IMG/VR virus record: IMGVR_UViG_2898099943_000001 | Coordinates: 62,001-126,000 of that record | Strand: one strand, 5' to 3' | DNA from: an uncultured virus (IMG/VR IMGVR_UViG_2898099943_000001) | Lineage: Duplodnaviria; Heunggongvirae; Uroviricota; Caudoviricetes | Length of the DNA stretch: 64,000 bases | Shown: positions 24,211 to 43,272 of the stretch, one piece after another | Numbering within the stretch: position 1 is the stretch's first letter | Layout of the letters: the number at the start of each line of letters is the position of its first letter | The notes under the pieces: generated by a model | What the model saw: only the letters and a program-made list of their open reading frames with translations | Told to the model about the DNA's origin: nothing | Database searches by the model: none | Program-made: the position numbers and the translations under genes

Positions 24211-24531
24211 ATGTCATCAATCAAAAGAACAAGTAATTTAGAAGACTTGGCTAGTAAGGATAACTTTAAGCCAGAAAATACTTACGATACAGTTAAAAGC
24301 GAAGGCAAGACTGAGAAAAGAAGAACACGTAAAGATAAAAGATACAGTTCTATGCGACTTAAAACTGGAACACGTAAAGAATTTGACGCTTATAAACTTG
24401 CTACCAAACTTAAATATGATGATGATGGTTTAGTTAGACTAATGGACTTCTGGAAAGCAAATGCGAAGATGTCACAACGTAAAAGATTTGATATGTATCT
24501 AATGGGTGCTGAGGAAGAAGACGAAGATTAG
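24211..24531 (+). CDS. Putative centromere-binding adaptor (RHH-like, type Ib)
   Basis: Small basic protein after parA; beta-alpha-alpha pattern YSSMRL...KYDDDGLVRLMDFW. Confidence 0.55.
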   Translation: MSSIKRTSNLEDLASKDNFKPENTYDTVKSEGKTEKRRTRKDKRYSSMRLKTGTRKEFDAYKLATKLKYDDDGLVRLMDFWKANAKMSQRKRFDMYLMGAEEEDED

Positions 24532-24675
24532 TTATCAATCTAAACTATTATATAAATGGACAAAAAGTAACAGATATTAGACGCTGTTGTACCAGCGTTT
24601 ATATTTGTGGCTAAAATTTGTACACATTTGTACATGTACACATTTACACAAAAATTAGATAGGAGTGATTTTATA

Positions 24676-25083
24676 GTGTACTGTCAAACATGCGGTGCGA
24701 TTAATCGTGAGGACGCTAAGTTCTGTTTTAAATGTGGAGATAAACTTGAAAAAGGTATCGAACCAAATAGAATTGTGATTCCAGCAGACGTACAACCACA
24801 ACATGGTGATGACGAAGATATTGAAGCTATCGAATTGGAATACATCAAAAAGTCATTAAATAGTGGTAGTGGGACTAAGAACCAACAATGTGGTTTTAGA
24901 ATTAATAAAGATATTAGAGAAAGAATGGACACTCTAAAGAATATCACGAGATTGAAGTTCGATTATCAAGTCGCTGATTATCTTTTAGATTTCCATAGAC
25001 GTCATGCGACACCAAGACAATTAGGTCTATATGCAGCCTACGATAGTATTAAAAGTAATGACGTAGCAACGGATAATGAATAG
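24676..25083 (+). CDS. Zinc-ribbon plus RHH-like paralogue
   Basis: AGGAG RBS before GTG 24676; CQTC..CFKC; LKFDYQVADYLLDF. Confidence 0.6.
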   Translation: MYCQTCGAINREDAKFCFKCGDKLEKGIEPNRIVIPADVQPQHGDDEDIEAIELEYIKKSLNSGSGTKNQQCGFRINKDIRERMDTLKNITRLKFDYQVADYLLDFHRRHATPRQLGLYAAYDSIKSNDVATDNE

Positions 25084-25232
25084 ACAAGTATACATGTAGA
25101 AGTGTACAAAGTTCCACAAATAAAGATGTAAGAATACTTATATATAGGTGTTTTAAGAACTTCATGTACATATGTAGAAATGTAGAACTGTACAAATGTA
25201 CACAAATATAGTAAATTATGGAGGTAAATAAT

Positions 25233-25583
25233 ATGATTTGTCCTAAATGTAATAATGAAAATTCTGATAAGGCTATGTACTGCATGTACTGTGCTAATAA
25301 GATTGGTAGAACTTATAATGTGGAAGATAATGTAGAGAAAATCGAAAGCATTGTTGCTGCCAATAATGATAAACCCAAGAGCAAAGGTAAGAAAGCTAAG
25401 AATCCAAACCAAGCTGTTAACATTAAGATGAGTGAAGATCTTAAATATGACCTTGAAATATTTAAAGCAATGATGTCTATTAAGTTTGATTACGCAGCTA
25501 TTAGTTACTTATTGCAAGATTGGGCTGAACGTTTAGACCCATCTGAAAGAGCTGTATATGACGCATTGAGAGCAAGACAGTGA
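25233..25583 (+). CDS. Zinc-ribbon plus RHH-like paralogue
   Basis: GGAGGT RBS; CPKC..CMYC; IKFDYAAISYLLQDW. Confidence 0.6.
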   Translation: MICPKCNNENSDKAMYCMYCANKIGRTYNVEDNVEKIESIVAANNDKPKSKGKKAKNPNQAVNIKMSEDLKYDLEIFKAMMSIKFDYAAISYLLQDWAERLDPSERAVYDALRARQ

Positions 25584-25594
25584 GAGTAGTTAAT

Positions 25595-26002
25595 ATGAAA
25601 CTTTGTAAAGAATGTAGAACAGAAAACCCAGATTATGCGAATATGTGCTGTGTATGTGGTAGTAAAAACCTAGTTCGTTTCGATGAAGTGATTGATACGT
25701 ATATGGAATTAGACGCAAACAAGAGCAAGAAGAGTACTAAGTTTAATGATTTATGCGAATACATTGACGACCCATTAGTATTAGATGACAAGAGATACAC
25801 ATCAGCAAGGTTAAAAGACCTTACAAGAAGAGTATTTGACGGATATAAGATTGTAGAGAATATCAAATACGATAACGAGGCTACATTTTCATTGGTGAAT
25901 TATTGGACTACACATCCCGACACTAAGGCATATAAAATCGACAAGTTAGATGATATTGTCAGAATGTATTTTGATAGAGATAAGAGCTTAAGAACTATCT
26001 AA
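25595..26002 (+). CDS. Zinc-ribbon plus RHH-like paralogue
   Basis: CKEC..CCVC; DKRYTSARLK...IKYDNEATFSLVNYW. Confidence 0.6.
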   Translation: MKLCKECRTENPDYANMCCVCGSKNLVRFDEVIDTYMELDANKSKKSTKFNDLCEYIDDPLVLDDKRYTSARLKDLTRRVFDGYKIVENIKYDNEATFSLVNYWTTHPDTKAYKIDKLDDIVRMYFDRDKSLRTI

Positions 26003-26200: not shown

Positions 26201-27596
26201 TAGATAGCTTTCTATGAATTATATAGGAATATTTTAGACCGTTACATTAGCTTGTATCGGTCTTTTATTTTGCCTTAATATCATAGTTGTATCATGAACT
26301 ACACTATAATAAGCAGCATTATAGATTTACATACGGTATTTTAACGCATGATAAGGTAGTGATTGTCATGTAAGTCTTAAAAACCATATAAACAAGGTCT
26401 GTTTAGCATTTGTGGGAGTTTTATTTTTAGAATTTCGTTTTGAAAACTCAATGTAAGCGTGATAATAAGGGGCTAATATGACAACTTCTGAAATGAGTGA
26501 TTTTAGGGGTAAAAACATAAGGTTTACCACCTTGTAAAGCCAGATGTAGATGTGTCGCTTATTAAGGATAATTTTAGAGGCATGAATATAAAATCTAAAT
26601 AAAAACTAGGTAATAATGTCATAAAGATAAGATAAAGTTATAGTAAAGTATGGAGAAAAGTAAATTGGAGTGAGTGAAAAATTCACTGTTTACATGGGCA
26701 TATTAAGGTAGATTTTTTGAAAGAATGAAAGAGAAATCGAAACTTTCCATTTTTGTACCAGTGGAGTAGCTGCGAGTGTATTGTTTCAAGGTTGTAGCTC
26801 ACAGGGACTTTTGTCAATGATTTATAGACAAAACTTGATGTGTCTTAGCTTGTATTTTGAGTGATTTTTGAGTGCAATTATAGTGAGCTAAAAAGGTCGG
26901 AATCTATGAAAATACGAAATATTTTATAAAAGCGGAGTGAATTTGCAGCTGGAAATTGTGAAGATTTTGTGAAGATTATAATTGGAGTGATTGTACTGGC
27001 TGGAATTGAGTTTGTTAATTATAAGATTATTGTTATGTAATTAGTTAGATTTAATGTATAAGTGATATGTACATATACAGGCAATATTATAGTGTTTTTG
27101 AGCTTGATAAGGGGTGTTAGTATCATTTTATGTAAGAAGGGGAGGGTGAATAGCCTTTTAAGGCTGCTAACACAGCTAAATTAGGAGTAAAAGCGCAATG
27201 TAAGACAGTTAGAATGGGGTGGAATGGGGAGGAATTTGGTAGGAATTTGGTAGGAATTTGTGGTGTGTGGGGAGAGCTACTGTATCTGAAAGGTTGTGCA
27301 AAATTTAAAAGATTTGAGATAAATAGGGGGCTTCCTCTATGTAAAATAATTCTAGTTATTTTTTGAATGCTAAAAAAGTATATATTTTGGTCCTTAAAAA
27401 AGATTAAAAATGAAAACGCTTTCAGAATAAAATCAAGTGTATTTATATAAATTAATATATGAAGATGTATCTATAAATTTTATTTATAGTATTATAAGAA
27501 TAACTTATATTTTGCGCTATTAATAAAATTTGATACACCAAACCCTCTATTATACCACACTCCACACAATAACACAATACTATATTTAAAATAATA

Positions 27597-27612
27597 TGTT
27601 TCACGTGAAACA
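27597..27612. promoter_or_regulatory. parS: parS site (Spo0J/ParB consensus)
   Basis: Perfect palindrome TGTTTCACGTGAAACA. Confidence 0.8.
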
Positions 27613-27628
27613 TCTATAATTTATAACA

Positions 27629-27828
27629 ATTCTAAACTAATAAAGATTACAGCTTAACAAAATTTACCACCTTGTAAAAATTCTAAATTAACAAAAACTC
27701 TAACTTTATAATCATTCTAAATTAACACAAATTCTAATATTAGAAACATTCTAAATTAATAACGATTATAAGTTAATAACATTCACAAAATACTATATTT
27801 TATTAGTTTATAACTATTCTAAACTAGC
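27629..27828 (+). repeat. About six copies of ATTCTAA(A)YTA
   Basis: Copies near 27630, 27681, 27715, 27732, 27749, 27817. Confidence 0.55.
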
Positions 27829-28363
27829 TAACATCTACTGCATGCAGCTGCCACTTATTTACTTACAATAAGTTAGCGTATTAACTAGATGTAACAACAT
27901 TGCAAGCCGTCAAGGCTTTAACCTAATTACATAAATGTATATTATAGTAGATACATACATATAAGCACTATATACCATAAGCATAACATTATATTAACAT
28001 CTACACTCATTACACCTTATTGCATACGCTCAAACCCTTGATATATCAACGTTTATCACGCTTACATTATATAGATTATACATACTAACTGCATATATAT
28101 ACACGTATAAGACACCTATAATACTAATCATATATAACACTATGAAAAGCCTTATATAATAGCATTTATAGCACCATACCACCATAAGATTATAATAAAA
28201 TACTTATAACAATAAAATAAGCATAAAATAAAGCTCCACAAAATACCACAAACAAAAAGCCTTATCTTATAAGTTTTCACAATGTTTTCATAAAGTAAAT
28301 GAAAGCGATTAAAGCCTTATTAAATAAGGGTTTAATAGTGCTTGAATAATACCATCTTATAAT

Positions 28364-28723
28364 TTACTTGCTAGAGGTTAGCCCTTGTAAAAATGCTTTC
28401 AATGCTATTATATCGGTATCTGTAAGCGTTTTGCCATTGTATGAAATACCAGTTTTCAAAATGGTATCTAATTCATTAGCATTGATAAGATTTTTATTAT
28501 CTTTTTTATTAGATAAACCGTATAAATAATCTAAACTTACATTATACAAGTTAGCTAATTTAAAGGCTTTATCAAGTGGAAGGTTACTTCTTCCATATTC
28601 ATAACTAGAATAAGACCGTCTATCAAACATATCTAATTTTTTAGCAATATCTTCCATTGTGTAAGAGTGGATTTCTCTTAACTCTTTCAAACGGGAGGCG
28701 GTCAATTTTTTATCGTACAACAT
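28364..28723 (-). CDS. XRE/Cro-CI HTH repressor
   Basis: RLKELRE..YTMEDIAKKL...YSSYEYGRSN...LANLYNVSLDYLYG. Confidence 0.88.
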   Translation of the reverse strand: MLYDKKLTASRLKELREIHSYTMEDIAKKLDMFDRRSYSSYEYGRSNLPLDKAFKLANLYNVSLDYLYGLSNKKDNKNLINANELDTILKTGISYNGKTLTDTDIIALKAFLQGLTSSK

Positions 28724-28963
28724 ATAAATTATTTTAACCTTTCATTTTTTTATTATAATAGAAGAAACCATTTGAAATCTACTTTAATTATACCGTATAA
28801 AGCCCGTTATATCAAGGTTTATAAAGGATTTTAAAGGTGTAATTGTAAGCGTTTTCAATAGGTATTCTATATCAATTTAAAAAAATATAAGTCTTATAAA
28901 CCTTGATATAATAGGATTTGTAAAGGGTCACAAAATCTTTTTTGAAAAAATAATAAAAAACTG

Positions 28964-29324
28964 TTGACGGTGTAAAAATAATGTATTATGATATGTTTGT
29001 CGTTAAGATACAACGACAAAAAAAGCCCGAGGCTTGCGGGAGGTATTCAAGTTATACTTAATTTAATAAAATCTTCCAATTTTGGAAGTCAAAAAAGATT
29101 TTGATTTTTTTCAAAAAAAAGACTTGACAACATGGAAGATACATGATAAATTGAGTTTGTCGTTAAGTTGTAACGATAAACATATCATAATTTTAGGAAG
29201 TAAAAATCTTCCTAAACCTTGAAAAATCAAGGGTTTAAAAAGATTTTGAAAAAAAACAAAAAAACTCTTGACACAATTCAAGAAAGAAGTTATGATATGT
29301 TTGTCGTTAAGATACAACGACAAA
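28964..29324 (+). promoter_or_regulatory. Three tandem SigA promoters, each with the same palindrome at +1
   Basis: TTGACG-17-TATGAT (28964), TTGACA-17-TAAATT (29124), TTGACA-17-TATGAT (29268); each followed by TTTGTCGTT-N7-AACGAYAAA. Confidence 0.82.
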
Positions 29325-29905
29325 AAATAAAGCCTCTGAGTTGAGGCTTCCGACAATATCAACTCAATAAGTCAATTTTTAAATATGTTAGTTAGTACGC
29401 CCCGTACGTGGGGCGGGGGTATAAATAGCGTACAAAACACTTCCCCTCGGGTGTGGGAGGTGGGTAAACAAAACTTACACTCAATCCCTGGGTAGCCCTG
29501 GGCGTTCTTTGGACAATTTCATAAAATTTCGGGAGTAGCTTCCTGAGAGTGTACGCCGTCTACACTATAAATAATACGGAAGAGCCACGGCAAGCATAGC
29601 CGTGACACTCGGTCAAAAGCGGGCTTTCAAGGTGGAGTGCATCCTCCCTCGCTTTCACTAGCAATAGTAAAAGCGGTACTGAGTACGTCAATAAAATTGA
29701 GGGCCTGGCGTGATTTGCTTAATAACCCGCATACGGTAGGGGTATCAGAACGGACGTGGAAACACGCATGCTACCAGACTATATATAAATATAGTTTAAT
29801 GTTTGACAAAACTTGTATAGTTTCATACAACCTCTTAATATACCTCAACAAAATCAATTAATTTTGATTTTGTTTTAAAGCACTGTTACAAATAGTGTTT
29901 TAAAT
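29325..29905 (+). ncRNA. Candidate large structured RNA/leader
   Basis: GC-rich island with many short helices in an AT-rich genome; no RBS-supported ORF. Confidence 0.6.
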
Positions 29906-29933
29906 AAAAATCAAAAAAACGAGGTATAAAATT

Positions 29934-30227
29934 ATGAAAAAGTTTGTTAAGAGTTTCAATGAAAAAGGCTACGGTTATGTTATAACCATCGAAGAAGAAA
30001 ACGGCTGGTATTATCCAACTATTAACTTTGGTGATGGTTACATTTGTAAACCTAATATAAAAGGTCGCGATATATCATGGCTTCGCATGTTTGCAAGGTT
30101 TCATGATATTGAACTAGACTTTTTAACAGTATCCAAAGAGTACAAGATTGACTACGCTTTAAAGTTTTTCAACAAACATATTAATGTAGAAGAAGAGTTG
30201 AAAGACTTTTACATTGAAATGTATTAA
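29934..30227 (+). CDS. Early hypothetical protein
   Basis: GAGGT RBS. Confidence 0.7.
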   Translation: MKKFVKSFNEKGYGYVITIEEENGWYYPTINFGDGYICKPNIKGRDISWLRMFARFHDIELDFLTVSKEYKIDYALKFFNKHINVEEELKDFYIEMY

Positions 30228-30256
30228 CCTAATAAAATCTAAGGAGGTAACAGACA

Positions 30257-30460
30257 ATGAAAGATGTTTCAGAATTAGTACCACGCTACATTGTGGACTT
30301 AGATATTCAACACAAGAAGTTATTTGTCAAATACGATGACGGTATTGTGATTGAGGTTAAGGGTATCAAGTGGACTAAAAAGACTAGCTATCAAAGTCTA
30401 TTAAGACTAGGTGCTCAACAAGGTGTAAGACTTTACCTTAAAGAAATAGGTCAACTCTAA
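30257..30460 (+). CDS. Early hypothetical protein
   Basis: AAGGAGGT RBS. Confidence 0.75.
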   Translation: MKDVSELVPRYIVDLDIQHKKLFVKYDDGIVIEVKGIKWTKKTSYQSLLRLGAQQGVRLYLKEIGQL

Positions 30461-30514
30461 CCACGCATAGACAAACTCAATAGAGTTGCCACCGTGCGAG
30501 TCGGTGGGTGGTTT
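30459..30514 (+). ncRNA. Mini tRNA-like element 1
   Basis: AACCAC/GTGGTT closing stem stacked on CCACCG-TGCGAGT-CGGTGG; internal AACTC/GAGTT hairpin. Confidence 0.5.
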
Positions 30515-30559
30515 TACCACTTGAAAAAGTGGATAATAAATTAAGAGGAGGTATTCAAA

Positions 30560-30979
30560 ATGAATACACAATTTCAATTATTACACGAACGTAGTTTCAA
30601 TAAAGGGCTAGACTTTATAACGATAGACCCTTGCGAGGTAGAAGATTACGAGGAGGTAGAAACTGAAAACGGTGTCATGTATGGAATACTTGATGACCTA
30701 GACACGTTTGATTATCTAACTGAAAAGTTAGTAATAGATAGCAACGATGACTATTACTTGCTATTCAGTAATAACGGCTGGTTATTCTTAAATAGTGCAA
30801 TCAACGTAAAAGATGGTACCATTGGATATTTCAACTATGTTGACGACTCAGACACTGAGTGTGAATATGAACCAGTTACAACAATATCAAGCCATGATAT
30901 TAGATTGCTAACTGATACGATAGATAGATATTATCTATCCGAAGGGTGCGATATTGTAAAAGTAACTGAAATTAAATAA
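30560..30979 (+). CDS. Early hypothetical protein (acidic)
   Basis: GGAGGT RBS. Confidence 0.75.
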   Translation: MNTQFQLLHERSFNKGLDFITIDPCEVEDYEEVETENGVMYGILDDLDTFDYLTEKLVIDSNDDYYLLFSNNGWLFLNSAINVKDGTIGYFNYVDDSDTECEYEPVTTISSHDIRLLTDTIDRYYLSEGCDIVKVTEIK

Positions 30980-31026
30980 ACTCAAAATTGGTTAGTCAAA
31001 AAATAAATTTTAGAGGTGTATCTATT

Positions 31027-31254
31027 ATGAAGAAAAAAGAATTTAAAGCAACATTAGATAGTTTGTTGACTGGTAAAGGTGTAAAAGAATTTAAGCACGG
31101 TATAAAAACAATTAAAATTGTGTTTAACAATTCAACTGATTATAACGACTTTGCAAACTATATCATGAAAAACTACTATTCACTAAGTGAAGGGCTTGTT
31201 GTGAGTGGCAGCTATTACAACGATAGACAAACAATTATATTAGATTACAAGTAA
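31027..31254 (+). CDS. Early hypothetical protein
   Basis: GAGGTG RBS before ATG 31027. Confidence 0.7.
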   Translation: MKKKEFKATLDSLLTGKGVKEFKHGIKTIKIVFNNSTDYNDFANYIMKNYYSLSEGLVVSGSYYNDRQTIILDYK

Positions 31255-31311
31255 AAGAATTTTTTAGTAGTAACTCAATCAAGAAAAATAAATTTTAGGA
31301 GTGTATTAATT

Positions 31312-31638
31312 ATGATTATGAATAAAAGAATTTTTAACGAAGCAAAGGATTTAGACTTGACAAGTGAAAAATATGATGACCTATATTTCACAATAAAAGA
31401 AAAATTAGATGTATATGATATTCTAGGTATTTTTAGAGTTGATAAAGAGGGCTTGCTATATCAAGCATTGATGAAATGGTACGAACATAAAAAAATTAAT
31501 CCAGTAGACTATGAAGACAATGATTATATCTACTTTACTCATGGTTATGGTTATGCTTTATACGATGATATTGTAGGTGGTAACGGTAGCACTGAGAAAC
31601 AAAAAGAATTTTTAGACTATATCAATTCTATTGATTAA
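31312..31638 (+). CDS. Early hypothetical protein
   Basis: AGGAG RBS. Confidence 0.7.
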   Translation: MIMNKRIFNEAKDLDLTSEKYDDLYFTIKEKLDVYDILGIFRVDKEGLLYQALMKWYEHKKINPVDYEDNDYIYFTHGYGYALYDDIVGGNGSTEKQKEFLDYINSID

Positions 31639-31657
31639 GAGTCTAGAGAAGAAACTA

Positions 31658-31715
31658 AGGGTAGGTAGTTAGTACATAGAAAAATTCTATCAAGGTGCAA
31701 ATCCTTGCTACCCTG
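31658..31715 (+). ncRNA. Mini tRNA-like element 2
   Basis: 7-bp AGGGTAG/CTACCCT plus 5-bp CAAGG-TGCAAAT-CCTTG; internal ATAGAA/TTCTAT hairpin. Confidence 0.6.
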
Positions 31716-31765
31716 TATCTACCATATAATACGGTAGAAAAAATAATTTTTAGGAGGTAGTCAAA

Positions 31766-32014
31766 ATGCTACTAATAAAAGAAGAATATAAACTCAACTA
31801 CGAAACTAATAAGTGGGAATTAGTTAAAAGTTCAGTAATGAAGAAAAATTATTCAGTTAAAGAGTTTCATAAGGTAGTGAATGGTAACGCTTTTAAAAAT
31901 CAAGAATTAATTGGTTGGTATAGAGTACTTAATGAAAGAAAAAACGAGTACTATGTATTCAATCAAATTAAATCAACTGTAATAAAGTTAGTTGATGAAA
32001 AAAAGAATTTTTAG
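31766..32014 (+). CDS. Early hypothetical protein
   Basis: AGGAGGT RBS. Confidence 0.7.
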   Translation: MLLIKEEYKLNYETNKWELVKSSVMKKNYSVKEFHKVVNGNAFKNQELIGWYRVLNERKNEYYVFNQIKSTVIKLVDEKKNF

Positions 32015-32027
32015 GAGGTACATTACT

Positions 32028-32390
32028 ATGATACAAGAAAAAATTATTGAATTAGACCAAGAAGAAATTAACGAATTATTGACAAGTGATTGTCTAGTAG
32101 AAACTATAGAGGGTTGCTTATTGGATAACTACCTATTTCAATTAGACCAAGAAAAATATCTAATTGTGATAGAGGAGTATAGAAACTGTTGGTCAAGTGC
32201 TAACGTGGGTTTACTCACTACAGATACAAGCAAAGTAAATAAATTTATTGAACTAGCTTTGCAAAATGAAGATGAAGATACTTGCTTGAATTTAGACGGT
32301 GTATTTTTTGACGACAGGAAAACTAGACTAGAAAAATTTTATAACGATTTTGAAACACTGGCAAAAGTTGTAAATGAGTTAAGACAATAA
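32028..32390 (+). CDS. Early hypothetical protein
   Basis: AGGAGGT RBS before ATG 32028. Confidence 0.7.
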   Translation: MIQEKIIELDQEEINELLTSDCLVETIEGCLLDNYLFQLDQEKYLIVIEEYRNCWSSANVGLLTTDTSKVNKFIELALQNEDEDTCLNLDGVFFDDRKTRLEKFYNDFETLAKVVNELRQ

Positions 32391-32451
32391 AGAATTTTTA
32401 GGTAGTAATTTCAGTCAAGAAAAGAATTAATAAGAATAGAGGTAAATAATT

Positions 32452-33144
32452 ATGATAGACAATAACAATGTATATGTAGATGACAAAAACAATTTTTATG
32501 TAGTGCTAAACGATGAAGATTACGGATATTTTGAAATAGAAAACTTAAAAGCTGAGGGCTTTCATTTTGTGAGTGATTGCATGACAAAAGAAGATGAAGA
32601 AAGTTTGTTAGAAGAAATAAAAACTTTACCTATTGATAAGCAAATAGAATTACTGGAATTAGTAGAAGAAAAAGCTAGAGTAATGAAAGAGTTTAGGTTT
32701 GACCTTGAAAGCCACCAAGAAGAATTTATAGAATAGTACGGTTATTTTGACCAAGAAGAATTTAATGAATGGTTACAAGAAGAAGTTATACCAGAAAGAT
32801 TAGACCTAGATTGGCATGATATAGAAACAGTTTGTGAGTATCTAATGCAATACAAAAAAGAATTTTTATTCTATGAATTAAGAGGTTACAGTCAAGGCGA
32901 TATAGCGTACGTATGGAATACTGATACAACATTAAAACTCACTAAAGAATATTTGGAAAGTGTATGTTTTGATAGTTGGATAAAAATTTACACTAGCAAC
33001 GAAGAAGGCGATATATTAGACAATTTAGAAGACTTGCCAGGGTACTATATCAGTAACGAAGGTGCGGATGTATATTTAAATGAATATATGAAAGAAAAAT
33101 ATAACGCTTGGCTTGCTGATTATGAAGTGACTTATAAACAATAA
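32452..33144 (+). pseudogene. Single gene interrupted by in-frame TAG at 32734-32736; paralogue of 34693-35322
   Basis: Frame continues open after TAG into ORF 32845, which has no RBS; C-termini YMKEKYNA vs YMFEKYNA. Confidence 0.65.
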
Positions 33145-33169
33145 AAAGAATTTTTAGGAGGGCTTTATT

Positions 33170-33379
33170 ATGATTAAAAATATTGAATATGTAGGATTTG
33201 CTTACAACTTAGATGATATAGAAGTTGAATTTATTGTTAATGGTGTGAAAAAGAATTTATATATCTACAGTAAAGGTGTAGAAGATATTCTAACTTTTAT
33301 GGATTATCAAGAATTCGAAGATGTAGATACGATACTAGAAACATATTTTGAGAAATTCAAAGAAGAAATATTTGCATAA
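33170..33379 (+). CDS. Early hypothetical protein
   Basis: AGGAGG RBS. Confidence 0.7.
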   Translation: MIKNIEYVGFAYNLDDIEVEFIVNGVKKNLYIYSKGVEDILTFMDYQEFEDVDTILETYFEKFKEEIFA

Positions 33380-33409
33380 CAAAAAAGTAATTTTAGTGAG
33401 GTAATTAAA

Positions 33410-33790
33410 ATGAATAAAATAAATATTTTAAAAATAACTAATGTTGTAACAATAGTTGGTGTAGTTTGTTTAGGTGTATCTAATCATGAATACATTAAAC
33501 AAAATAAGCAACTCAGAAAAGAGAATTTACATCAAGAAACAATTATTAAAAAGCAACGTCAAGAATTGACTTATAACGTTAAAAACCTTGACTTGCAAAG
33601 TGGAAATATCATTAAAACAAATAAATTTACTTTAGAATACTATGATGATAATCAGAAAGATTTTCACATGGTTATCTATCCTAATAATAAGAATTTAAGG
33701 GTAGTTAGTGAACAAGGTCAAGGAGCAAAAGGTATTGAAGTAGAAAGTGTACCAAGTGATTTTAAAGGTACTACTACAATAATAAAATAA
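33410..33790 (+). CDS. Membrane-anchored/secreted hypothetical protein
   Basis: N-terminal hydrophobic helix then coiled coil. Confidence 0.65.
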   Translation: MNKINILKITNVVTIVGVVCLGVSNHEYIKQNKQLRKENLHQETIIKKQRQELTYNVKNLDLQSGNIIKTNKFTLEYYDDNQKDFHMVIYPNNKNLRVVSEQGQGAKGIEVESVPSDFKGTTTIIK

Positions 33791-33899
33791 ATTTTAGTGT
33801 TGACAAGTAAGAATTAAGAAGTTATAATTCAGTTATCAAGTTAAAGGTTTAAAGAATAACTTGATAACAAAAAATAATTTAAGAATAGAGGTAATTAAA

Positions 33900-34547
33900 A
33901 TGACAGATACAGAAAAAATTTTTGGAATTATGGATGACGTGGTTAATGTGTGGGGTTTATATATCGAAGATATAAATGTATATACCAATGACCTAGAGGC
34001 TACTATTGTAGGTCAATACGACAGTAGAATTTACTACACTTACAACGATATAGATGAATTAGAAGGTAAGTCAGAAAAAGAAATTTTTGCAAGTTTAGAA
34101 GTCGTGCTTATTGAAACACTAGAAGATTTTGACGCCGAAGAAGAGTTCGAAAATCTAGACTGGAACGACACAAGCATTTTAGAAAACATGAAACTTGATG
34201 AAAAAGATTTTAAAGAAACCGTATGGATGTACGAACAAAAACAAAAAGGTAAAAAAGTATCAAGTTTTGAACTGGCTTTGACACACGAATTACAAAAACT
34301 AGGTCAACTTATGAATGATGAAGTTTATCCTGGTATGGTAGCTAGTTATGCTGTGGATATTTCAAGAGTTAGATGGTCAAATGAAATTTATGAGTATATG
34401 AAAGAAAAAAATATTGATATGAGTAATGTAGATTATTATGACGTTAATTTCTTTAGCATTGTAAAAAGAGATAGTTTAATAACTGAGTTGTGGACTCAAG
34501 GTAAGAAGGATGAGGCGGTAAAACAATTTCAAACACACGTATTTTAA
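33900..34547 (+). CDS. Early hypothetical protein (acidic)
   Basis: GAGGT RBS; promoter TTGACA-17-TATAAT at 33800. Confidence 0.72.
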   Translation: MTDTEKIFGIMDDVVNVWGLYIEDINVYTNDLEATIVGQYDSRIYYTYNDIDELEGKSEKEIFASLEVVLIETLEDFDAEEEFENLDWNDTSILENMKLDEKDFKETVWMYEQKQKGKKVSSFELALTHELQKLGQLMNDEVYPGMVASYAVDISRVRWSNEIYEYMKEKNIDMSNVDYYDVNFFSIVKRDSLITELWTQGKKDEAVKQFQTHVF

Positions 34548-34585
34548 ATGAATATATATATTTAGAGTCTAGAGAATAAATAAAA

Positions 34586-34643
34586 AAGGTAGCTAGTTGG
34601 TAGCTTACATAATGTAAGTAAGGTTCGAGTCCTTACTACCTTA
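34586..34643 (+). ncRNA. Mini tRNA-like element 3
   Basis: 7-bp AAGGTAG/CTACCTT plus TAAGG-TTCGAGT-CCTTA T-arm; D-like CTAGTTGGTAG; CTTACA/TGTAAG hairpin with 3-nt loop. Confidence 0.68.
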
Positions 34644-34692
34644 TATATCCTAATCAGGATAGAAAAATAATTTTATATAGGAGGTATCTATT

Positions 34693-35322
34693 ATGAAAAA
34701 GTTTATAGATACAGTAAATAAAAAAGAATTGTTGGTAAGTGAAAGTGAATGGCATGTAGACAACTACATTGATGAGTTGAAAAGCAATGGTATTCATGTA
34801 GTAAGTAATGTAGATTTTCTTGATTATACAGAGGCTTTAGAAGATATTACTGAGGCTTTCCTAGATATAGTTGACGATTTAGAAAAAGAAGACAACTATT
34901 TTAGACTACCAACTCAAGAAGAATTAATGCAAAAGTGGGTAGATAGTGGGTGGAAAGATTTAAACGAGCCATTCAATAAAGAGTTAGCAACTAGCTTTTA
35001 TTATAGTGATTGTATACGTGACGTTTTGAGTGAGGAGCCTTGCGAGTTTCTAAGTTGGTTAGATAGTGAAAGTAGATTTTTTACTTATGAAACAGTAAGT
35101 GAAGGTATGGATTTCTATGACTTAATAGAATACCATCCACTAACCAATGTAGAAAGCGATATGTTGCTAACTTATGATGATGAATTAAGAAAAAATTTAT
35201 TTGATGATTGGTTTTTTGTAGAAGATGAAGAAGGAAATCAAGAAGAATTTAGTTTAGAAAGTTTTCAATCATTAGATAGATACATGTTTGAAAAATACAA
35301 TGCAATAGAAGTAACTAAGTAA
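34693..35322 (+). CDS. Early hypothetical protein (acidic)
   Basis: AGGAGGT RBS. Confidence 0.75.
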   Translation: MKKFIDTVNKKELLVSESEWHVDNYIDELKSNGIHVVSNVDFLDYTEALEDITEAFLDIVDDLEKEDNYFRLPTQEELMQKWVDSGWKDLNEPFNKELATSFYYSDCIRDVLSEEPCEFLSWLDSESRFFTYETVSEGMDFYDLIEYHPLTNVESDMLLTYDDELRKNLFDDWFFVEDEEGNQEEFSLESFQSLDRYMFEKYNAIEVTK

Positions 35323-35384
35323 AGAAAATTTTCTAAGAATTTCAATAACAAAAAATAATTCAAGTAAAAAGGGTGGTAATCAAT

Positions 35385-35582
35385 ATGTACAATCAGGAAT
35401 TTTACGGTGGTTTATTTATGATGAGTTTTGTTGCGTTGACAGTGATTTTAATGGGTAGCTATCATGCTATACGTTGGTTATTCAAGAAAAGAAGATTTAT
35501 TTTCAAGTTAATGTTATTCATACCATACACAATATTAACTTTATTGTTAGTCGGTATTAAAGCATTGAATAGTAGAATATAA
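35385..35582 (+). CDS. Small membrane protein
   Basis: Two hydrophobic segments. Confidence 0.65.
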   Translation: MYNQEFYGGLFMMSFVALTVILMGSYHAIRWLFKKRRFIFKLMLFIPYTILTLLLVGIKALNSRI

Positions 35583-35611
35583 AAAAATAATTATTAAAGG
35601 TGGAAATTAAA

Positions 35612-36424
35612 ATGACAAAAACAGAAATTAAAGTAAATGCAAAAGAATTAGTTAGAAGTTATAAAGAAATTTTAGTACATGTTTCAAAATCAAGTTTCAG
35701 ACCTATATTAGCAACACTTAATCATGTAGTAGAAAACAATAAATTAACTTTAGTTGCTACTGATACACATTCACTAGGTAAATTAACGCTTGATTGTGAA
35801 AATAACAATGATGTTGAGTTTGCAGTACCTAGAAAAGCAATTCAAGCAGTAGCAAAGTTAAAAAATAAAGAATTAGTTGATAAAGAAATTATCCTTGAAT
35901 TTTCTGATAACAAAATCGATTACATTGTGAATGGTAAAGAATTTATTAGCTCAATGACAGAAGGTAATTATCCAAGTGTTGAAAGAATTTTACCAGTGGT
36001 AAACGAAGATAGAAATATTACGTTCAATATTCGTGAATTAAAAGAATTTATCAAACATATTAAAGAAACTGGTTACCACAGAAAGAATTGGAATAACAAA
36101 ACAATTCAATCAAATATTAAATTTATCAAAGGTCAATTCGTGTTTAGTTATGAATACGAAGATGAAGAAGGTAGTGTCTACTACAAAAAAGAAAATATTA
36201 ACTGTGATGTAACTGAAGGGTTTACTGATGATTATGATATTAATCTCAATATCTATGAATTAGAAAAACATGTGAATAAATTCTTAGTTGGTAACAAAAC
36301 AATTACATTAGCTTTTGTTGAAAAAGAATTTATGAATAGTCAAAACGTCAGACCAATTCAAGTAACATACAACGGTTTAGATAATTACGTTGGTGTGTTA
36401 GCACCAATGAGGGCTTTTAGATAG
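35612..36424 (+). CDS. DNA polymerase III beta-clamp-like protein lacking domain I
   Basis: RPIL...LVATDTHSL, EGNYPSVERILP, C-terminal VLAPMR. Confidence 0.72.
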   Translation: MTKTEIKVNAKELVRSYKEILVHVSKSSFRPILATLNHVVENNKLTLVATDTHSLGKLTLDCENNNDVEFAVPRKAIQAVAKLKNKELVDKEIILEFSDNKIDYIVNGKEFISSMTEGNYPSVERILPVVNEDRNITFNIRELKEFIKHIKETGYHRKNWNNKTIQSNIKFIKGQFVFSYEYEDEEGSVYYKKENINCDVTEGFTDDYDINLNIYELEKHVNKFLVGNKTITLAFVEKEFMNSQNVRPIQVTYNGLDNYVGVLAPMRAFR

Positions 36425-36495
36425 TAGAAAAATAAAGAAAAATTAGTTAGAAAATCGAAAACAAAAATAATTTAAAAATTAAAGGGTGGTTAATT

Positions 36496-36885
36496 ATGAT
36501 GGAAAATAACTTATTTGTAGCAACAATGTTGGGCTGTGGCACTAATGACTTGGATGTATTTTTTGGTAGATTAGATAAATATGAAGATACGGTATTTTTG
36601 GATGACGAAGAATTTTCATATGAAAAATTAATCGAAGAAACAAAATTTAGGGCTGGTAATGACTATGGTCTTAACGATTTAATGGAAACTTTAGACTGCA
36701 TGGCTGTTGATAGTGCATTAGGTCAAGTAACACAATCAGAAAAATTTGATGAGTTCAATGATTTAGTATTTGAAAATTTAAGATGGAGTTACAACTACTC
36801 GTATATTGAATTTTATTTTGATGATAAAGAAGAATTAAAAAAGTTTGATGAATGGAAAGAATTTTCAGAATTATTAGGTTTATAA
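36496..36885 (+). CDS. Early hypothetical protein
   Basis: AAGGGTGGT RBS. Confidence 0.7.
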   Translation: MMENNLFVATMLGCGTNDLDVFFGRLDKYEDTVFLDDEEFSYEKLIEETKFRAGNDYGLNDLMETLDCMAVDSALGQVTQSEKFDEFNDLVFENLRWSYNYSYIEFYFDDKEELKKFDEWKEFSELLGL

Positions 36886-36900
36886 AGGGTGGTAACAAAA

Positions 36901-37161
36901 ATGAAAAACACAATTCAAGTAAACAATGTAGGTAATAAGATTTTAGAAATGTTGGTAGATGATTTTGAAAATAAGTATTCTTTTGATACCAGTTATTTTG
37001 TAGACTTCATCTTCTATGGAGTAAAAGAAAAAATTCTAGGTATGAAACCAATGAAATACATTATTGTTTTGAGTAATGCAAACAAAATAATTTTAACTGA
37101 TGACAATCAACTATACGAAGATATGTACAAAAATAATTTTAAAGAATATATGGAAAACTAG
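36901..37161 (+). CDS. Early hypothetical protein
   Basis: AAGGGTGGT RBS. Confidence 0.68.
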   Translation: MKNTIQVNNVGNKILEMLVDDFENKYSFDTSYFVDFIFYGVKEKILGMKPMKYIIVLSNANKIILTDDNQLYEDMYKNNFKEYMEN

Positions 37162-37175
37162 AGGAGGAGTTAATT

Positions 37176-37415
37176 ATGAAAGTAAGAAATTTTAAAGAAT
37201 TAAACAGTGAATATCCAATGGTTGTTGAGTTGGTAGTATATAAACCAACTTTTAGAAAGCGTGTAGATATTGTTGTAAATCAAGAAATAACTTTAGCTTT
37301 AGCAAGTAATATTGTTGCTTATGTAATACCAAGAAGTCTAAACGATAGAGTGAGAAAAGTCTGGGATATGGATTATATAGACAATCAGACAATCATTACA
37401 GTTGACTATGAATAA
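37176..37415 (+). CDS. Early hypothetical protein
   Basis: GGAGGAG RBS. Confidence 0.7.
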   Translation: MKVRNFKELNSEYPMVVELVVYKPTFRKRVDIVVNQEITLALASNIVAYVIPRSLNDRVRKVWDMDYIDNQTIITVDYE

Positions 37416-37445
37416 AAGAATTTTTAACAAAGGGTGGTAATTGAA

Positions 37446-37685
37446 ATGAAAGAAAGAAAATTTAATGTGTACGTGAAAGATAGATTAGTAGGTCAAATAA
37501 CATATGATAACTGGGTTTACTTTGATGATTATCGTACCAATGAATATGATATTGACCTAGATATAAAAGAATTGGACGTGGCAATGGAAACTTTGATTGA
37601 TTACTACATTAAAGATATACCTTGCAATTACGAAGATGTTGGTTTTGTTGAGTTAGTTAATAAAGAAAAATTAGTTGAAATTTAG
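37446..37685 (+). CDS. Early hypothetical protein
   Basis: AAGGGTGGT RBS. Confidence 0.68.
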   Translation: MKERKFNVYVKDRLVGQITYDNWVYFDDYRTNEYDIDLDIKELDVAMETLIDYYIKDIPCNYEDVGFVELVNKEKLVEI

Positions 37686-37733
37686 TGTTCGGATAAAATA
37701 ACGATTTTATAAACGTTATAAACGTTGGTATGT

Positions 37734-37799
37734 AAGGTAATTGGTATAATACAATAAAATAATTTATTGCATTTTAAGGTTCGATTCCTTTTTACCTTG
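37734..37799 (+). ncRNA. Mini tRNA-like element 4
   Basis: 7-bp AAGGTAA/TTACCTT plus AAGG-TTCGATT-CCTT; internal CAATAAA/TTTATTG hairpin. Confidence 0.6.
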
Positions 37800-37849
37800 T
37801 CAGTTTGAAACACAATTCAAACTAAAAAAATAATTTTAGGAGTGATTAT

Positions 37850-38449
37850 ATGCAAGCTATACGATATGGCGAAGCCTTGAATTATCTGTTTGAGTTTTGC
37901 TTGTCTACTGGTAAAGAATTTCCGAAAGACTGGCGAAAGATAGACAATAGATTTTTCAATGGCATAAAGGATAACAAATTAAAAGATGAAGTGAAGATGT
38001 GTGTTGAGGTTATAAGCAACCATTCAGTTAGTAAGAATGGAAAAATTATACCTAAATCAAAACGTGAAAGAAAAATTAATAGAGTGTTTAGACTGCAAAA
38101 AATACTCGAACATGATATTAACTTTCATTACGGTAGACATACAAAAAGTATTTTAGAAAGCGAAGGATTGTGTTTAAGCAATATGTACTCAGCATTAGAT
38201 AACCATGATGATTATCTGGCACAAAGAGAAAATGGCAAAAGAATTTTCTTGATTGATAGAGAAATGATTATCCACAAAACATATGATGATGTACACGTTG
38301 CCAGCAAAGAATATGGTGTCCAACCTTACAATATTTACGATTGGTGCAATCGAGGTGCTTATCGTTTTGATGGAAAAAGAATGATTAAAGCACATACGTA
38401 CAGTAACTTAGTTTGCACCAATAAAGAATTTCATTATCAATTTAGGTAG
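37850..38449 (+). CDS. Hypothetical protein, possible NUMOD1-like HTH at C-terminus
   Basis: YDDVHVASKEYGVQPYNIYDWCN. Confidence 0.55.
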   Translation: MQAIRYGEALNYLFEFCLSTGKEFPKDWRKIDNRFFNGIKDNKLKDEVKMCVEVISNHSVSKNGKIIPKSKRERKINRVFRLQKILEHDINFHYGRHTKSILESEGLCLSNMYSALDNHDDYLAQRENGKRIFLIDREMIIHKTYDDVHVASKEYGVQPYNIYDWCNRGAYRFDGKRMIKAHTYSNLVCTNKEFHYQFR

Positions 38450-38484
38450 CAAAAACAATTTGAATTTGAAAGGGTGTCTTAAAT

Positions 38485-38763
38485 ATGGAAAACAAAGAAG
38501 AATTAGCAACAAAATTATTAAACGTATCATTAAAAGCAATTAACGATAAAGATTTGAATTTAGAAGAAAAGAGTGTTGTATACATTCTGGTAAACAAAAT
38601 TTTAACTATTGGATATGAAAATACAATGGGCGAGTTATTGCATGAAGAAAAATTTTATGAAGGATTCGGCTTTACATACAACTATCCAACGTTAGTAACT
38701 AAGTTTCTGATGAGTAATTACTTTAATGAAATTCGTGAAATTTTAGATGGTGGTGAAAAATAA
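38485..38763 (+). CDS. Hypothetical protein
   Basis: RBS; coupled to next gene. Confidence 0.68.
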   Translation: MENKEELATKLLNVSLKAINDKDLNLEEKSVVYILVNKILTIGYENTMGELLHEEKFYEGFGFTYNYPTLVTKFLMSNYFNEIREILDGGEK

Positions 38764-39455
38764 TGGAAAAAGAAAAAATTCTGGTAGAAGTTAAACAGTT
38801 TGAACGTGAGCTACAAATGCAAAATAAGGTGCTTGCAGCTTTAAATACAGTAGATGATGTTAAGTTAGTTGTTATTGAAAATGAATTGTTGGATATGTTT
38901 AAGAAGAAATTAAACATGAAATTGAAAGCATGGGGTATTCGTGAAGGTGTGGCAGATAGCTATATCAACATTAATTGGTCTGAAAAAGTTTTGAGCATGT
39001 CGTTAGATACGAAGAAAATTAAGAAAAGAATAGGTATTGGCAAGAAGAAACGTTTTGATTTTGACGCTTATAGTTTAGATGAAGTGATGATGATTGTTAA
39101 AAAAGAAATCATCCGTCAAGGTATCGAAGATAATCCATCACAAATGCTATATTACAAGAATTTAGAAGTCGGTTCAGCACCAACTCCACCAGCTATTCAA
39201 CGCAAATACGGTATGAATTGGACAGATGTGCTAGATTATATCGGCATTGAACCAAGTTCATTAAAAACATATGAAGATACAGAAGAAATATTACGTGAAT
39301 TAAAGGCGGAAATTGAAAGATTGAATATGAAATATCCCTTTAGAAAAAATGAATACGAAGAAAAAAGAAATAGAAAAACTAGCCCTTCATCAACAACAGT
39401 AATAGTTCGTACTGGTAAGGGTTGGAGAGAAATTATCAATGAAATTATGAACTAG
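38763..39455 (+). CDS. Protein with two repeats resembling homing-endonuclease-associated DNA-binding repeats
   Basis: KKEIIRQGI...APTP...YGMNWTDVL and KAEIERL...SPSS...TGKGWREII. Confidence 0.55.
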   Translation: MEKEKILVEVKQFERELQMQNKVLAALNTVDDVKLVVIENELLDMFKKKLNMKLKAWGIREGVADSYININWSEKVLSMSLDTKKIKKRIGIGKKKRFDFDAYSLDEVMMIVKKEIIRQGIEDNPSQMLYYKNLEVGSAPTPPAIQRKYGMNWTDVLDYIGIEPSSLKTYEDTEEILRELKAEIERLNMKYPFRKNEYEEKRNRKTSPSSTTVIVRTGKGWREIINEIMN

Positions 39456-39625
39456 AAAATAGTTTGAATTTAAAAGGGTGTCATCACTTTAAGGAGGTGG
39501 TTAAATTGATTGTTTGAGGTGCGTAGTTATAACTACGGTGGTAAATCATAAACGTTTAAATATAGTATTCATAATTAATTAATTATAAATAAAAATAAAT
39601 TTTAAATATACAGGAGGGCATATAT

Positions 39626-40456
39626 ATGTCAAATGAATTACAAAATTTTAGTTTTGAAGGTAAAAATGTACAAGTAATTATGGTGGAAAACGAACCATAT
39701 TTCTTTGGAAAAGAAGTTGCGGGAATTTTAGGGTATACAAGAACTGCAAAAGCAATTCAAGACCACGTTGATGAAGAGGACGTCAAAACGTTGACATATA
39801 AGGATAGTCCTAAAATGGGACTATCTAAATTATGGAAAAATGGCGATTATAAAGATAAAAAATTTATTAACGAGTCTGGTTTATATGGCTTAATTCTTTC
39901 AAGTAAATTACCAAGTGCTAAGAAGTTCAAGCGTTGGGTAACTGGTGAAGTTTTACCATCAATTCGTAAACATGGTGCTTACATGACAGAAGAAACTGTG
40001 GAAGAAATTTTAACTAATCCAGATACAATTATTAAATTAGCTACACAATTAAAAGAGGAAAGATTGGCACATCAAAAGACAAAAGAAGAAAAATTAATGG
40101 TTGAGCAACAATTAAGCGAAGCCAAACCAAAAGTAACTTACTACGACATTATTTTACAAAATCCATCGCTTGTATCAATTACACAAATTGCTAAGGATTA
40201 TGGTATGAGTGGTAAAGGTATGAACCAAAAGTTGAAAGAATTAAAAATTCAATACAAGCAAAGCGGAACATGGTTCTTATATTCTAAATACCAAAATAAG
40301 GGTTGGACTTCATCAGAAACGAAAATTATTCCAACTAGCTATGGTGACAAGGTAACAATGTACACTAAGTGGACACAAAAAGGTCGTTTAGCATTGTACG
40401 ACATCTTAAAAGAAAAAGGTATCTTACCTATGATTGAAAGGAACAATCAAGATTAA
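39626..40456 (+). CDS. Phage antirepressor (BRO-N plus KilA-C/ANT)
   Basis: INESGLYGLILSSKLPSAKKFKRWVT.EVLPSIRKHG; KPKVTYYD...WTQKGR. Confidence 0.92.
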   Translation: MSNELQNFSFEGKNVQVIMVENEPYFFGKEVAGILGYTRTAKAIQDHVDEEDVKTLTYKDSPKMGLSKLWKNGDYKDKKFINESGLYGLILSSKLPSAKKFKRWVTGEVLPSIRKHGAYMTEETVEEILTNPDTIIKLATQLKEERLAHQKTKEEKLMVEQQLSEAKPKVTYYDIILQNPSLVSITQIAKDYGMSGKGMNQKLKELKIQYKQSGTWFLYSKYQNKGWTSSETKIIPTSYGDKVTMYTKWTQKGRLALYDILKEKGILPMIERNNQD

Positions 40457-40633
40457 GATACCAAAATAAAAATAATTTTCTAAATTATCTTTAGTATACC
40501 CAACTAAAGATTAACACAAAAAATTATTTTTTCCCAGTGTTCTGGGTTTTTAAATATTCCCTAGAAATAGGGGGTATCTAAAAGTTCAGAACAATGAGCT
40601 TTAAAAATAAACAAAAGAAAGTAGGAATTAATC

Positions 40634-41380
40634 ATGGAAAAATTTGAATACAAGGATTTAGAACATATGAAAGAAGTTGTTAGAAATGAAATTATACGAT
40701 TGGGCATTCAAGATAACCCAAAGGTACAATCTTACAATGACGGGTACATTCGTGGTAAAGCACCAAGTCCAAGTTTTATCTTTTCAAAATCTAAGATGAC
40801 ATGGATTGAATTTATAGAAGAAATTGGTTTTAAGTCAATCTCACGAAAAGAAAGTAGTGAAACAGGTAAACGTAATTTAGGTAAGAAGTATGCAAAAGTA
40901 GGTAAACAAGCATGGAAAAGTGATAGCTTTAGAAAAAGAATTATGGACGAAGCGGTAACAGCTATGCACGAAGGTGGTTATGGCATGCAAACTGAATTGA
41001 GTAAGTATTTTAAGAATGATATTGGCATTGGTTTTGGAACATTCTTAAATCATGATTTTACTTACGGTGATTTTATTCATGCTTACGTGGAAAAGTACGG
41101 TGAACTACCACATGGTGTAAGAAGTACATGGAAATATGCTACAGATAAAGAATTAATTAACGGTATGGAAAATTTATTCAAGAAATATGAATGCACTAGC
41201 TTCTGGGATTACATCCAAAAAAATCATGACTCACTTGCACCAGACTCAAAGTTGTTAATGAGGAGATTGGGTAAAAAGAATGTTTACGTATTAGCAAATG
41301 GGTTCGCAGCTCAATATGGAAAATTTGGTAAAGCTGGAAGTTTAAATAGAAATAAAGGCATTGGTAAGAGATGGGCATAA
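40634..41380 (+). CDS. Repeat-domain protein related to 38763-39455
   Basis: VRNEIIRLGIQDNP...APSP...MTWIEFIEEIG. Confidence 0.6.
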   Translation: MEKFEYKDLEHMKEVVRNEIIRLGIQDNPKVQSYNDGYIRGKAPSPSFIFSKSKMTWIEFIEEIGFKSISRKESSETGKRNLGKKYAKVGKQAWKSDSFRKRIMDEAVTAMHEGGYGMQTELSKYFKNDIGIGFGTFLNHDFTYGDFIHAYVEKYGELPHGVRSTWKYATDKELINGMENLFKKYECTSFWDYIQKNHDSLAPDSKLLMRRLGKKNVYVLANGFAAQYGKFGKAGSLNRNKGIGKRWA

Positions 41381-41397
41381 TCAAGGAGGAATTTAAC

Positions 41398-41694
41398 ATG
41401 GAATTAACATTCGCAGATAAAAATACAGAAATGATTTACAAGAAAAAGTTTTCTAAGAAGATACCACATCAAATACAAAAAACAGCATATAAGAAGTTAG
41501 CATTGTTAGATGAGGCAGATAGCGTAGGTGATTTAAAAGCAATACCTTCTAATCGCTTAGAGTTTCTAAAAGGCAGCATGAAGGGTGGTAAGAAAAATAA
41601 ATATAGTATTAGAGTAAATAAGCAATACAGAATATTATTTGAATACATCGCAGATATGTTTTGCAATGTTGAGTTAGTAGACTACCACATATAA
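41398..41694 (+). CDS. higB: HigB/RelE-family toxin, no adjacent antitoxin
   Basis: LTFADK.TE...PSNRLEFLKG...YSIRVNKQYRILF...LVDYH. Confidence 0.85.
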   Translation: MELTFADKNTEMIYKKKFSKKIPHQIQKTAYKKLALLDEADSVGDLKAIPSNRLEFLKGSMKGGKKNKYSIRVNKQYRILFEYIADMFCNVELVDYHI

Positions 41695-41875
41695 TATGGT
41701 TAGGCAAAGAAAAGAATTTTTACCAAAAAATAAAGATTGAAAATAATTTACAAATAAAAGGGTGTCATGAAAATAACAAAAATAACGTTATTTATGTTAT
41801 TGACAATGGTAGTAAATATGATATAATTCAGTTGTAAAGTTAAAAGCTAAAAGAATAAAGGAGCAACGATGCAAT

Positions 41876-42127
41876 ATGAAAAAGAATTTAATAACAGTCA
41901 TCTCAAGTCAAGGCGAAAACAATGAAGTGAGATTGCATATCAATTACGAAAACAATGTGTACTATAAAGGTACTCCAGCAACAGATGATGATATTTATGT
42001 TAACTTTCATGAATATCCAGCTGTTAATGTAATGAATGAAGATGAGTTAAATAATCAAGTAAGTGAATTGAACGCTAATGGTTTTAGAAGTGTTAGCAAA
42101 GCAGACTATCAAAGATTAATGAACTAG
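41876..42127 (+). CDS. Hypothetical protein
   Basis: AAGGAG RBS; promoter TTGACA-17-TATAAT at 41800. Confidence 0.68.
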   Translation: MKKNLITVISSQGENNEVRLHINYENNVYYKGTPATDDDIYVNFHEYPAVNVMNEDELNNQVSELNANGFRSVSKADYQRLMN

Positions 42128-42177
42128 AAGATAAAAACAAAACAATAATAAAGATTAAGAATTAAAGGGTGGTAATT

Positions 42178-43197: not shown

Positions 43198-43272
43198 TTT
43201 ATACTCTAAACTTTAATTAGTGCCAGCACCTAGACCTGTAATACAAGTCTTTGGTATAATCAATAGGGACAG

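Follow-up and report, generated by a model that had tools for sequence, protein, structure and literature searches.

A GC-rich folded leader with a boxA-like site and exchangeable blocks before the early operon of a Ligilactobacillus-type phage-plasmid

The element and its early region

The window analysed here is a stretch of 64,000 nucleotides that forms part of a complete virus record of 127,335 nt with direct terminal repeats. The element encodes a terminase (PHROG), RepA_N (Pfam) and ParA, and its capsid protein has 81 full-length relatives among large siphophages. Because the terminase, the capsid relatives and RepA_N are joined by an 88% match to the plasmid pMP1046B, we read the element as a temperate phage-plasmid of the Ligilactobacillus salivarius type. 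This plasmid, from L. salivarius JCM1046, provides the sole plasmid match of the GC-rich island discussed below (BLAST, 88% over 98% of the query, one of 72,556 plasmid records), and none of 50,697 phage records matches the island. In the available text of its report, pMP1046B is described as a circular putative chromid with mostly unknown genes (PMC4165912). It is typed as non-mobilizable.

The early region contains the following genes and features:

28364..28723, minus strand: helix-turn-helix (HTH) repressor gene (Pfam HTH_3, E 3.8e-12; PHROG repressor families), divergent from the promoters
28964..29020, plus strand: P1, a promoter-like site in a repeat, with a palindromic operator-like site (28996-29020)
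29124..29180, plus strand: P2, a promoter-like site in the same repeat, with an operator-like site (29156-29180)
29268..29324, plus strand: P3 (11/12 consensus) with an operator-like site (29300-29324); predicted start near 29303
29330..29366, plus strand: stems 29330-34/29345-49 and 29337-44/29359-66, which probably form an H-type pseudoknot; pMP1046B keeps the two, with one G-C becoming G-U
29398..29482, plus strand: rest of the upstream block, with two hairpins (29398-404/29409-15; 29438-45/29455-62); the remaining pairings vary from allele to allele
29487..29502, plus strand: hairpin directly 5' of boxA, the boxB position of rRNA leaders; invariant in pMP1046B
29504..29524, plus strand: degenerate boxA-like site, with one extra base and further changes relative to host boxA
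29527..29712, plus strand: downstream block, hairpins 29527-48 and 29586-604, helices 29607-13/29678-84, 29620-30/29697-707 and 29649-55/29670-76; compensatory changes
29721..29777, plus strand: core also found in L. reuteri-type leaders; the pairings 29725-28/29740-43 and 29735-39/29771-75 probably make an H-type pseudoknot around a variable insert, with no covariation inside the core
29848..29916, plus strand: 3' end of the leader, where a hairpin (29848-76) overlaps an AT-rich stem of 26 bp (29862-29916) that lies shortly before the ribosome site; possible cleavage site of RNase III
29934..30227, plus strand: first early gene, 97 aa; no Pfam or PHROG match, 3 homologues, no usable Atlas match

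The three promoter-like sites (28964, 29124 and 29268) sit in a 67-nt threefold repeat. Region-wide, promoter-like sites are not in excess (19 against 22.7 in shuffles), and the standing of the three tandem promoters, which a first-pass annotation had already proposed, therefore comes from the repeat and from the relatives. Most relatives have three to five tandem promoters; YLR001 and the Bacillus element have one clear consensus promoter. At each of the three start sites the same palindrome occurs. The HTH half of the repressor varies among three L. salivarius-type elements while its C-terminal half is conserved. A comparison of the window, pMP1046B and G001 shows that the palindromes change along with the HTH half, as operators would. 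Given this position and co-variation, the palindromes are probably operators. Since the window and pMP1046B have the leader in common and the operator not, the leader RNA is not the immunity determinant. Repressor HTH and palindromes vary between isolates to an extent that suggests many immunity types (window 28364-29324; L001, L035, L063, L068, L070, L071, L079, L081). L. reuteri-type elements have their palindrome between -35 and -10.

Between the three promoters and the first early gene extends an untranslated leader of about 630 nt. Its segment 29401-29800 has a GC content of 47.7%, higher than any other 400-nt segment of the genome, whose 127,335 nt average 34.1%. This agrees with the earlier description of a non-coding island richer in GC than its flanks; the final ~100 nt of the interval 29325..29905 are AT-rich. 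A single open reading frame of at least 50 aa overlaps the island, a 74-aa GTG frame at 29637-29861 that is unannotated in pMP1046B. The first strong promoter 3' of P3 lies at 33800, followed by other internal promoters at 35436 and 41800. From its place behind the repressor-divergent promoters and the lack of a strong promoter before 33800, we infer that the island serves the main early operon as its 5' leader, on which about ten genes appear to depend. Terminator-like sites in 29900-49800 number six on the plus strand and nine on both strands (4.9 in shuffles). The nearest such call downstream of the leader, at 30489, is more likely a tRNA T-arm.

Several neighbouring features were recorded alongside. 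TRNA-like intergenic elements at ~31658-31714, ~34586-34642 and 30489-30507, with a 7-bp acceptor-type stem, a T-arm and a variable middle, are called by neither ARAGORN nor Rfam; T-arm hairpins are also present five times in pMP1046B, six times in the L. mali element and twice in G256. These elements might serve RNase P/Z as processing sites on the early mRNA. A further tRNA-like sequence missed by both programs lies at ~60885-60960, and a short tRNA at 63580-63640 is called by Rfam and not by ARAGORN. RepA and parA lie 5-8 kb from the island. Behind parA come four small genes (24211-26002), three with zinc ribbons, and the first two of the four are replaced in G001. The long non-coding region 26500-28300 switches from G-rich to C-rich near 27400, as do similar regions in relatives, and may be a genome end or packaging site. 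A likeness of the first early protein to cold-shock proteins, noticed by eye, found no support.

Folding of the leader and its presence in RNA libraries

The sequence 29300-29860 folds with a z of -3.7 (0 of 100 shuffles as good), and 29325-29800 alone with a z of -2.45 (1 of 100). Two of seven non-coding control stretches reach z < -5, so that folding energy by itself is moderate evidence. More can be learned from individual helices. All six that the first-pass annotation had named are present (29330-36/29343-49, 29337-44/29359-66, 29398-404/29409-15, 29438-45/29455-62, 29586-91/29599-604 and 29649-55/29670-76). The first two had been thought to compete with each other; both exist, but an H-type pseudoknot fits better than competition, because pMP1046B disrupts one pair in the 7-bp hairpin and keeps the 5-bp stem together with the 8-bp crossing stem.

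Comparison with pMP1046B further reveals one two-sided and two one-sided changes in hairpin 29438-45/29455-62, and changes on both sides in four of the six pairs of helix 29586-91/29599-604. The exchange 29702 G>A, found in pMP1046B, X3 and X6, leaves the 11-bp helix intact. In the hairpin 29487..29502, three changes are read in RNA contig X9, all of which keep the pairing. Template switching can also produce paired changes. A 12-helix model keeps 81 of 81 pairs, a circular figure given that the helices were picked after both alleles had been seen. An unbiased count over thermodynamically predicted pairs with a change, drawn from two alleles, is marginal: 15 of 28 stay paired in one count (P 0.056) and 16 of 32 in the other (P 0.02). 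The local helices are therefore supported, and the overall fold is tentative. At the 3' end, the pairings of both the hairpin and the stem are kept in G001 with altered letters, and a long stem before the first gene closes the leaders of most relatives.

Part of the stretch is found in 13 sequencing runs, 10 of them recorded as RNA. Three of the four RNA runs examined, from three studies, contain contigs of 150-261 nt on 29381-29843; X1 has none. The island is thus present in RNA libraries, in contigs that carry no strand, end or level information. The flanks (26500-34000) are represented in the RNA runs by no more than one 95-nt piece, which differs at 13-15 positions, and by pieces below 45 nt. 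This does not make the island more abundant than its flanks, since the runs were chosen for containing it, depth is 2-6 and no DNA run was compared. On the whole, the evidence supports the earlier view that the GC-rich stretch is a real folded, structured non-coding RNA.

Comparison with known RNA families

The first-pass annotation had proposed a check against Rfam families such as ROOL, GOLLD, OLE and group I/II introns, and the Rfam search, which also covers ribozymes, EAR, LOOT and others, finds no match to any of them on the island. Over the whole window Rfam 15 returns only two tRNAs, none of nine weak matches at E<=10 overlaps 29325-29840, and the loci of six relatives have no match at the leader. 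An RNA of the ROOL or GOLLD type in particular is not supported, as neither covariance model matches. The ROOL model (RF03087, cut-off 99.1 bits) has no match at E<=1 in G000, G001, pMP1046B or pLM1, with the control pMP1046A scoring 125.6 bits, and BLAST with ROOL finds no piece longer than 16 nt; GOLLD (RF02032) has none at E<=1 in five records, a search that had no true positive control. Likenesses to HDV-like ribozymes, twister and group II domain V, considered by eye, were rejected because Rfam gives no match.

The leader resembles ROOL and GOLLD in size class, in occurring in Lactobacillales, in being phage-borne and in its pseudoknots. It differs in that the ROOL model matches pMP1046A, from the same strain as pMP1046B, and not this leader. 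According to the accessible part of PMC12286853, ROOL and GOLLD are often near tRNA islands, whereas the tRNAs here are 33 kb from the leader. The abundant 520-nt RNA known from L. salivarius lies on the other megaplasmid type, as far as the consulted text of PMC5643018 describes it. In the literature searched, which comprised papers outside subscription, none on this leader was found, and seven supplement files of a phage structured-RNA catalogue (PMC10690425) contain none of the leader motifs.

A boxA-like site within the leader

Can the string near 29504 that the first-pass annotation called boxA-like be regarded as a boxA? Its position was right: the site starts at 29504 and is the best of the window leader when one extra base is allowed. 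Against an ungapped matrix of host rRNA boxA, built from four distinct strings, it fails. The comparison set consists of 15 assembled leaders, seven of which are close kin; G002, G003, G005 and G009-G013 were left out as fragments ending before the leader or with the leader not read. The best site exceeds all 100 shuffles of its leader in 13 of the 15, and in 13 of 13 it also beats the best antisense site. The two failing leaders are those of the window and pMP1046B, whose sites are equalled by 83 and 93 of 100 shuffles. In the relatives, the sites correspond to the boxA found in rRNA leaders and spacers of Lactobacillaceae.

With one insertion allowed, the window site scores 10.1 bits on the host-only matrix, a value reached by seven sites on the plus strand of 67 kb. 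This test is stricter than an earlier gapped score (0 of 200 shuffles), whose matrix included phage sites. A single RNA contig, X9 (depth 2.4), has A instead of C at 29514 and C instead of T at 29517; the two changes bring the site closer to the host sequence and raise the score to 16.6. With caution, we take the window site to be a true but degenerate boxA. A sixteenth leader added afterwards (G620) has a boxA-like site that scores 12.6 bits, together with four promoters; G015-G017, with capsids 27-43% identical, have no such site in the stretches examined. The earlier proposal of an early-operon leader with a boxA is hence borne out by position and by the relatives, with the reservation that the window's own site is degenerate. 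In the Vagococcus element a 22-bit host-type boxA lies upstream of the terminase genes (L086 6946, minus strand), and its late operon may therefore use boxA too.

Host rRNA boxA pairs with the strand behind 16S at -34 to -37 kcal/mol. For the phage boxA, no such trailer partner strand turns up at any of nine sites over distances of up to 12 kb, where the best pairings reach -16 to -22 kcal/mol, and without this partner it would be free for protein. In the consulted text of PMC8632103, boxA is the binding site of NusB-NusE and the nucleus of the rRNA transcription complex, a complex that acts as a folding chaperone as well. The gene nusB is present in all five genomes tested and rho in four, including G083 (presumed L. 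salivarius). It is missing in G283, whose element keeps its boxA, so shielding from Rho is not the whole reason for the site.

Exchange of folded blocks between relatives

The relatives' leaders come from elements of the L. salivarius, L. mucosae, L. reuteri, L. mali, Vagococcus and Bacillus types. A common layout emerges in these phage-plasmids of Lactobacillaceae, Vagococcus and Bacillus: one or more promoters come first, then a boxA-like site with a folded block on either side, and last a long stem ahead of the first gene. When the blocks are split at boxA, both the upstream and the downstream ones fall into groups without BLAST similarity between them. Even G001, whose capsid is 100% identical to that of the window, has in the same slot a GC-rich sequence that is unalignable with the window island. 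The L. reuteri-type blocks assort with their junction at boxA, one pairing occurring four times and three others once each, and in the alignment of these leaders the switch falls exactly there. Blocks vary independently of the operator type, and the small early genes beside them are exchanged likewise. In G256 and G004 an IS3-family element splits the downstream block (L082 ~12070-13230).

Some sequence is nonetheless held in common. A 22-nt core with a distal 7-nt partner is shared by the window's downstream block and five L. reuteri-type leaders. As a pattern, the 22-nt core occurs in four IMG/VR records, always in this slot, and a 17-nt form in one of 401 family genomes, again in this slot. 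Other searches found few relatives. As BLAST queries, the leaders of G001, FN041 and the Bacillus element have no matches, and that of pLM1 only itself and ten weak 58-nt matches. Of three pattern searches with leader motifs, one returned nothing, one only pMP1046B and one only pMP1046B and G001; two GC-rich metagenome contigs that matched a pattern are attributed to chance, having no alignment to the window. A search for the repressor among viral contigs gave no match.

A proposed mechanism and its alternatives

What might such a leader do? Our preferred reading, which we hold with a probability of roughly one half, is that it loads host Nus factors in the manner of an rRNA operon and is cut at its 3' stem. 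When the repressor leaves the three operators, host polymerase would fire from the three tandem promoters, and the boxA-like site of the nascent RNA would load host NusB-S10 and other Nus factors. The modified polymerase could then cross 600 nt of folded RNA and the small early genes without premature termination, aiding the folding of the RNA as well. A double-strand nuclease, probably RNase III, would cut the long stem before the first gene and free the folded RNA from the mRNA. Counting against this mechanism are the weak window site, the few downstream terminators, the internal promoters and the IS3-type insertion in a relative, and it leaves the size and diversity of the folded blocks unexplained.

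The mechanism draws on known systems. Like rRNA operons, the early operon has tandem promoters, a hairpin followed by boxA, a long untranslated folded RNA and tRNA-like elements that punctuate it. Unlike them, it belongs to a repressor-controlled phage-plasmid, has no trailer strand pairing with boxA, and its leader, an RNA other than rRNA, is swapped from isolate to isolate. With lambdoid early regions (also mEp021 with Gp17) it shares a divergent repressor, type-specific operators, boxA and a long stem that precedes the first gene. The lambda N leader carries an RNase III site. Here, by contrast, the leader measures ~630 nt, the host is Gram-positive, and neither a boxB after boxA nor an N-like first gene is conserved. 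HK022 put and Bacillus EAR are likewise RNA elements between a promoter and the genes of a long operon, and put presumably works without boxA. The leader differs from them in having no Rfam match; they are also much smaller than conAn2-sized regions, to go by the accessible text of PMC8191782. The leader RNA may itself act in processive antitermination, as the first-pass annotation had suggested with put and EAR in mind; few terminator-like sites lie downstream, and the type of folded block varies from relative to relative.

The main rival concerns the blocks themselves, which might be exchangeable RNA cargo. This is unlikely on present evidence, though compatible with Nus loading. It would account for block types that are unrelated even between G001 and the window with their identical capsids, for L. 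reuteri-type blocks that assort at boxA independently of operator type, and for the like exchange of the adjoining small early genes; RNA contigs exist too. Yet no target or partner was found, and the common core was found only at this leader slot. H-type pseudoknots recall type III antitoxin RNAs, but for a cargo of that kind the repeat array and an Rfam match are missing. A bolder version, which we consider rather unlikely, envisages a pair of exchangeable RNA cassettes that meet at a boxA copied from rRNA, with at least seven unrelated folded RNAs per slot, made as an rRNA-like transcript. They would be excised by host nucleases, act in trans, for example against host defence, and diversify like anti-defence genes.

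It is decidedly improbable that the leader is one half of a two-part antiterminator, in which a protein of the phage would bind the leader type that goes with it, on the model of lambda N/nut or conAn of pLS20. The first gene of G001 (L035 11222-11476) does encode an arginine-rich stretch, with no family found and no Atlas support; the first gene of the window has no such stretch and no family, and L. reuteri-type elements keep one first ORF behind differing blocks. The window has no boxB after boxA coupled with an arginine-rich N as first gene, and the lambda type (PMC11893012, in its accessible text) fits less well than Nus loading. The conAn and cATT regions of pLS20 are similarly poorly conserved folded RNAs of several hundred nucleotides that head a long operon of a Gram-positive mobile element, and the 260-600 nt and 30-40% likeness given for conAn2 regions in the consulted text of PMC8191782 count in favour. 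However, conAn2 follows a protein gene in a conjugation operon, while the RNA here precedes all genes of a phage operon and has a boxA, a word absent from the main text of that paper as available. No ORF lies between the promoters and the RNA that could be a ConAn1-like gene. An attenuator or translational switch that holds the early genes down in the plasmid state is more doubtful still. Mutually exclusive helices at 29616-29707 and 29848-29916 would suit it, as would a possible pairing, in the window and pMP1046B, between 29839-46 and the ribosome site, and pLS20 provides a precedent in a 456-nt attenuating leader (PMC13401043, available text). The leader end, however, has no G-C hairpin with a U run, and the pairing against the ribosome site is not seen in G001. 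Least probable by far is a DNA-level element (an origin, a packaging or entry signal) or a relic. The strand-skew switch is 2 kb away and one relative tolerates the IS insertion; against this, G-U-preserving changes, the sense-strand boxA and the presence in RNA libraries point to RNA, and repA and parA are distant.

Implications

That Nus factors and boxA are used is well known from rRNA operons and, among E. coli phages, from the lambdoid and mEp groups, and our literature search found no report of it in Gram-positive phage-plasmids. A boxA that is kept where the host genome has no rho would point to a folding or anti-pausing role of the Nus factors. Each block is an undescribed folded RNA. 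The natural block swaps offer ready-made test pairs in a culturable commensal, of which JCM1046 carries pMP1046B.
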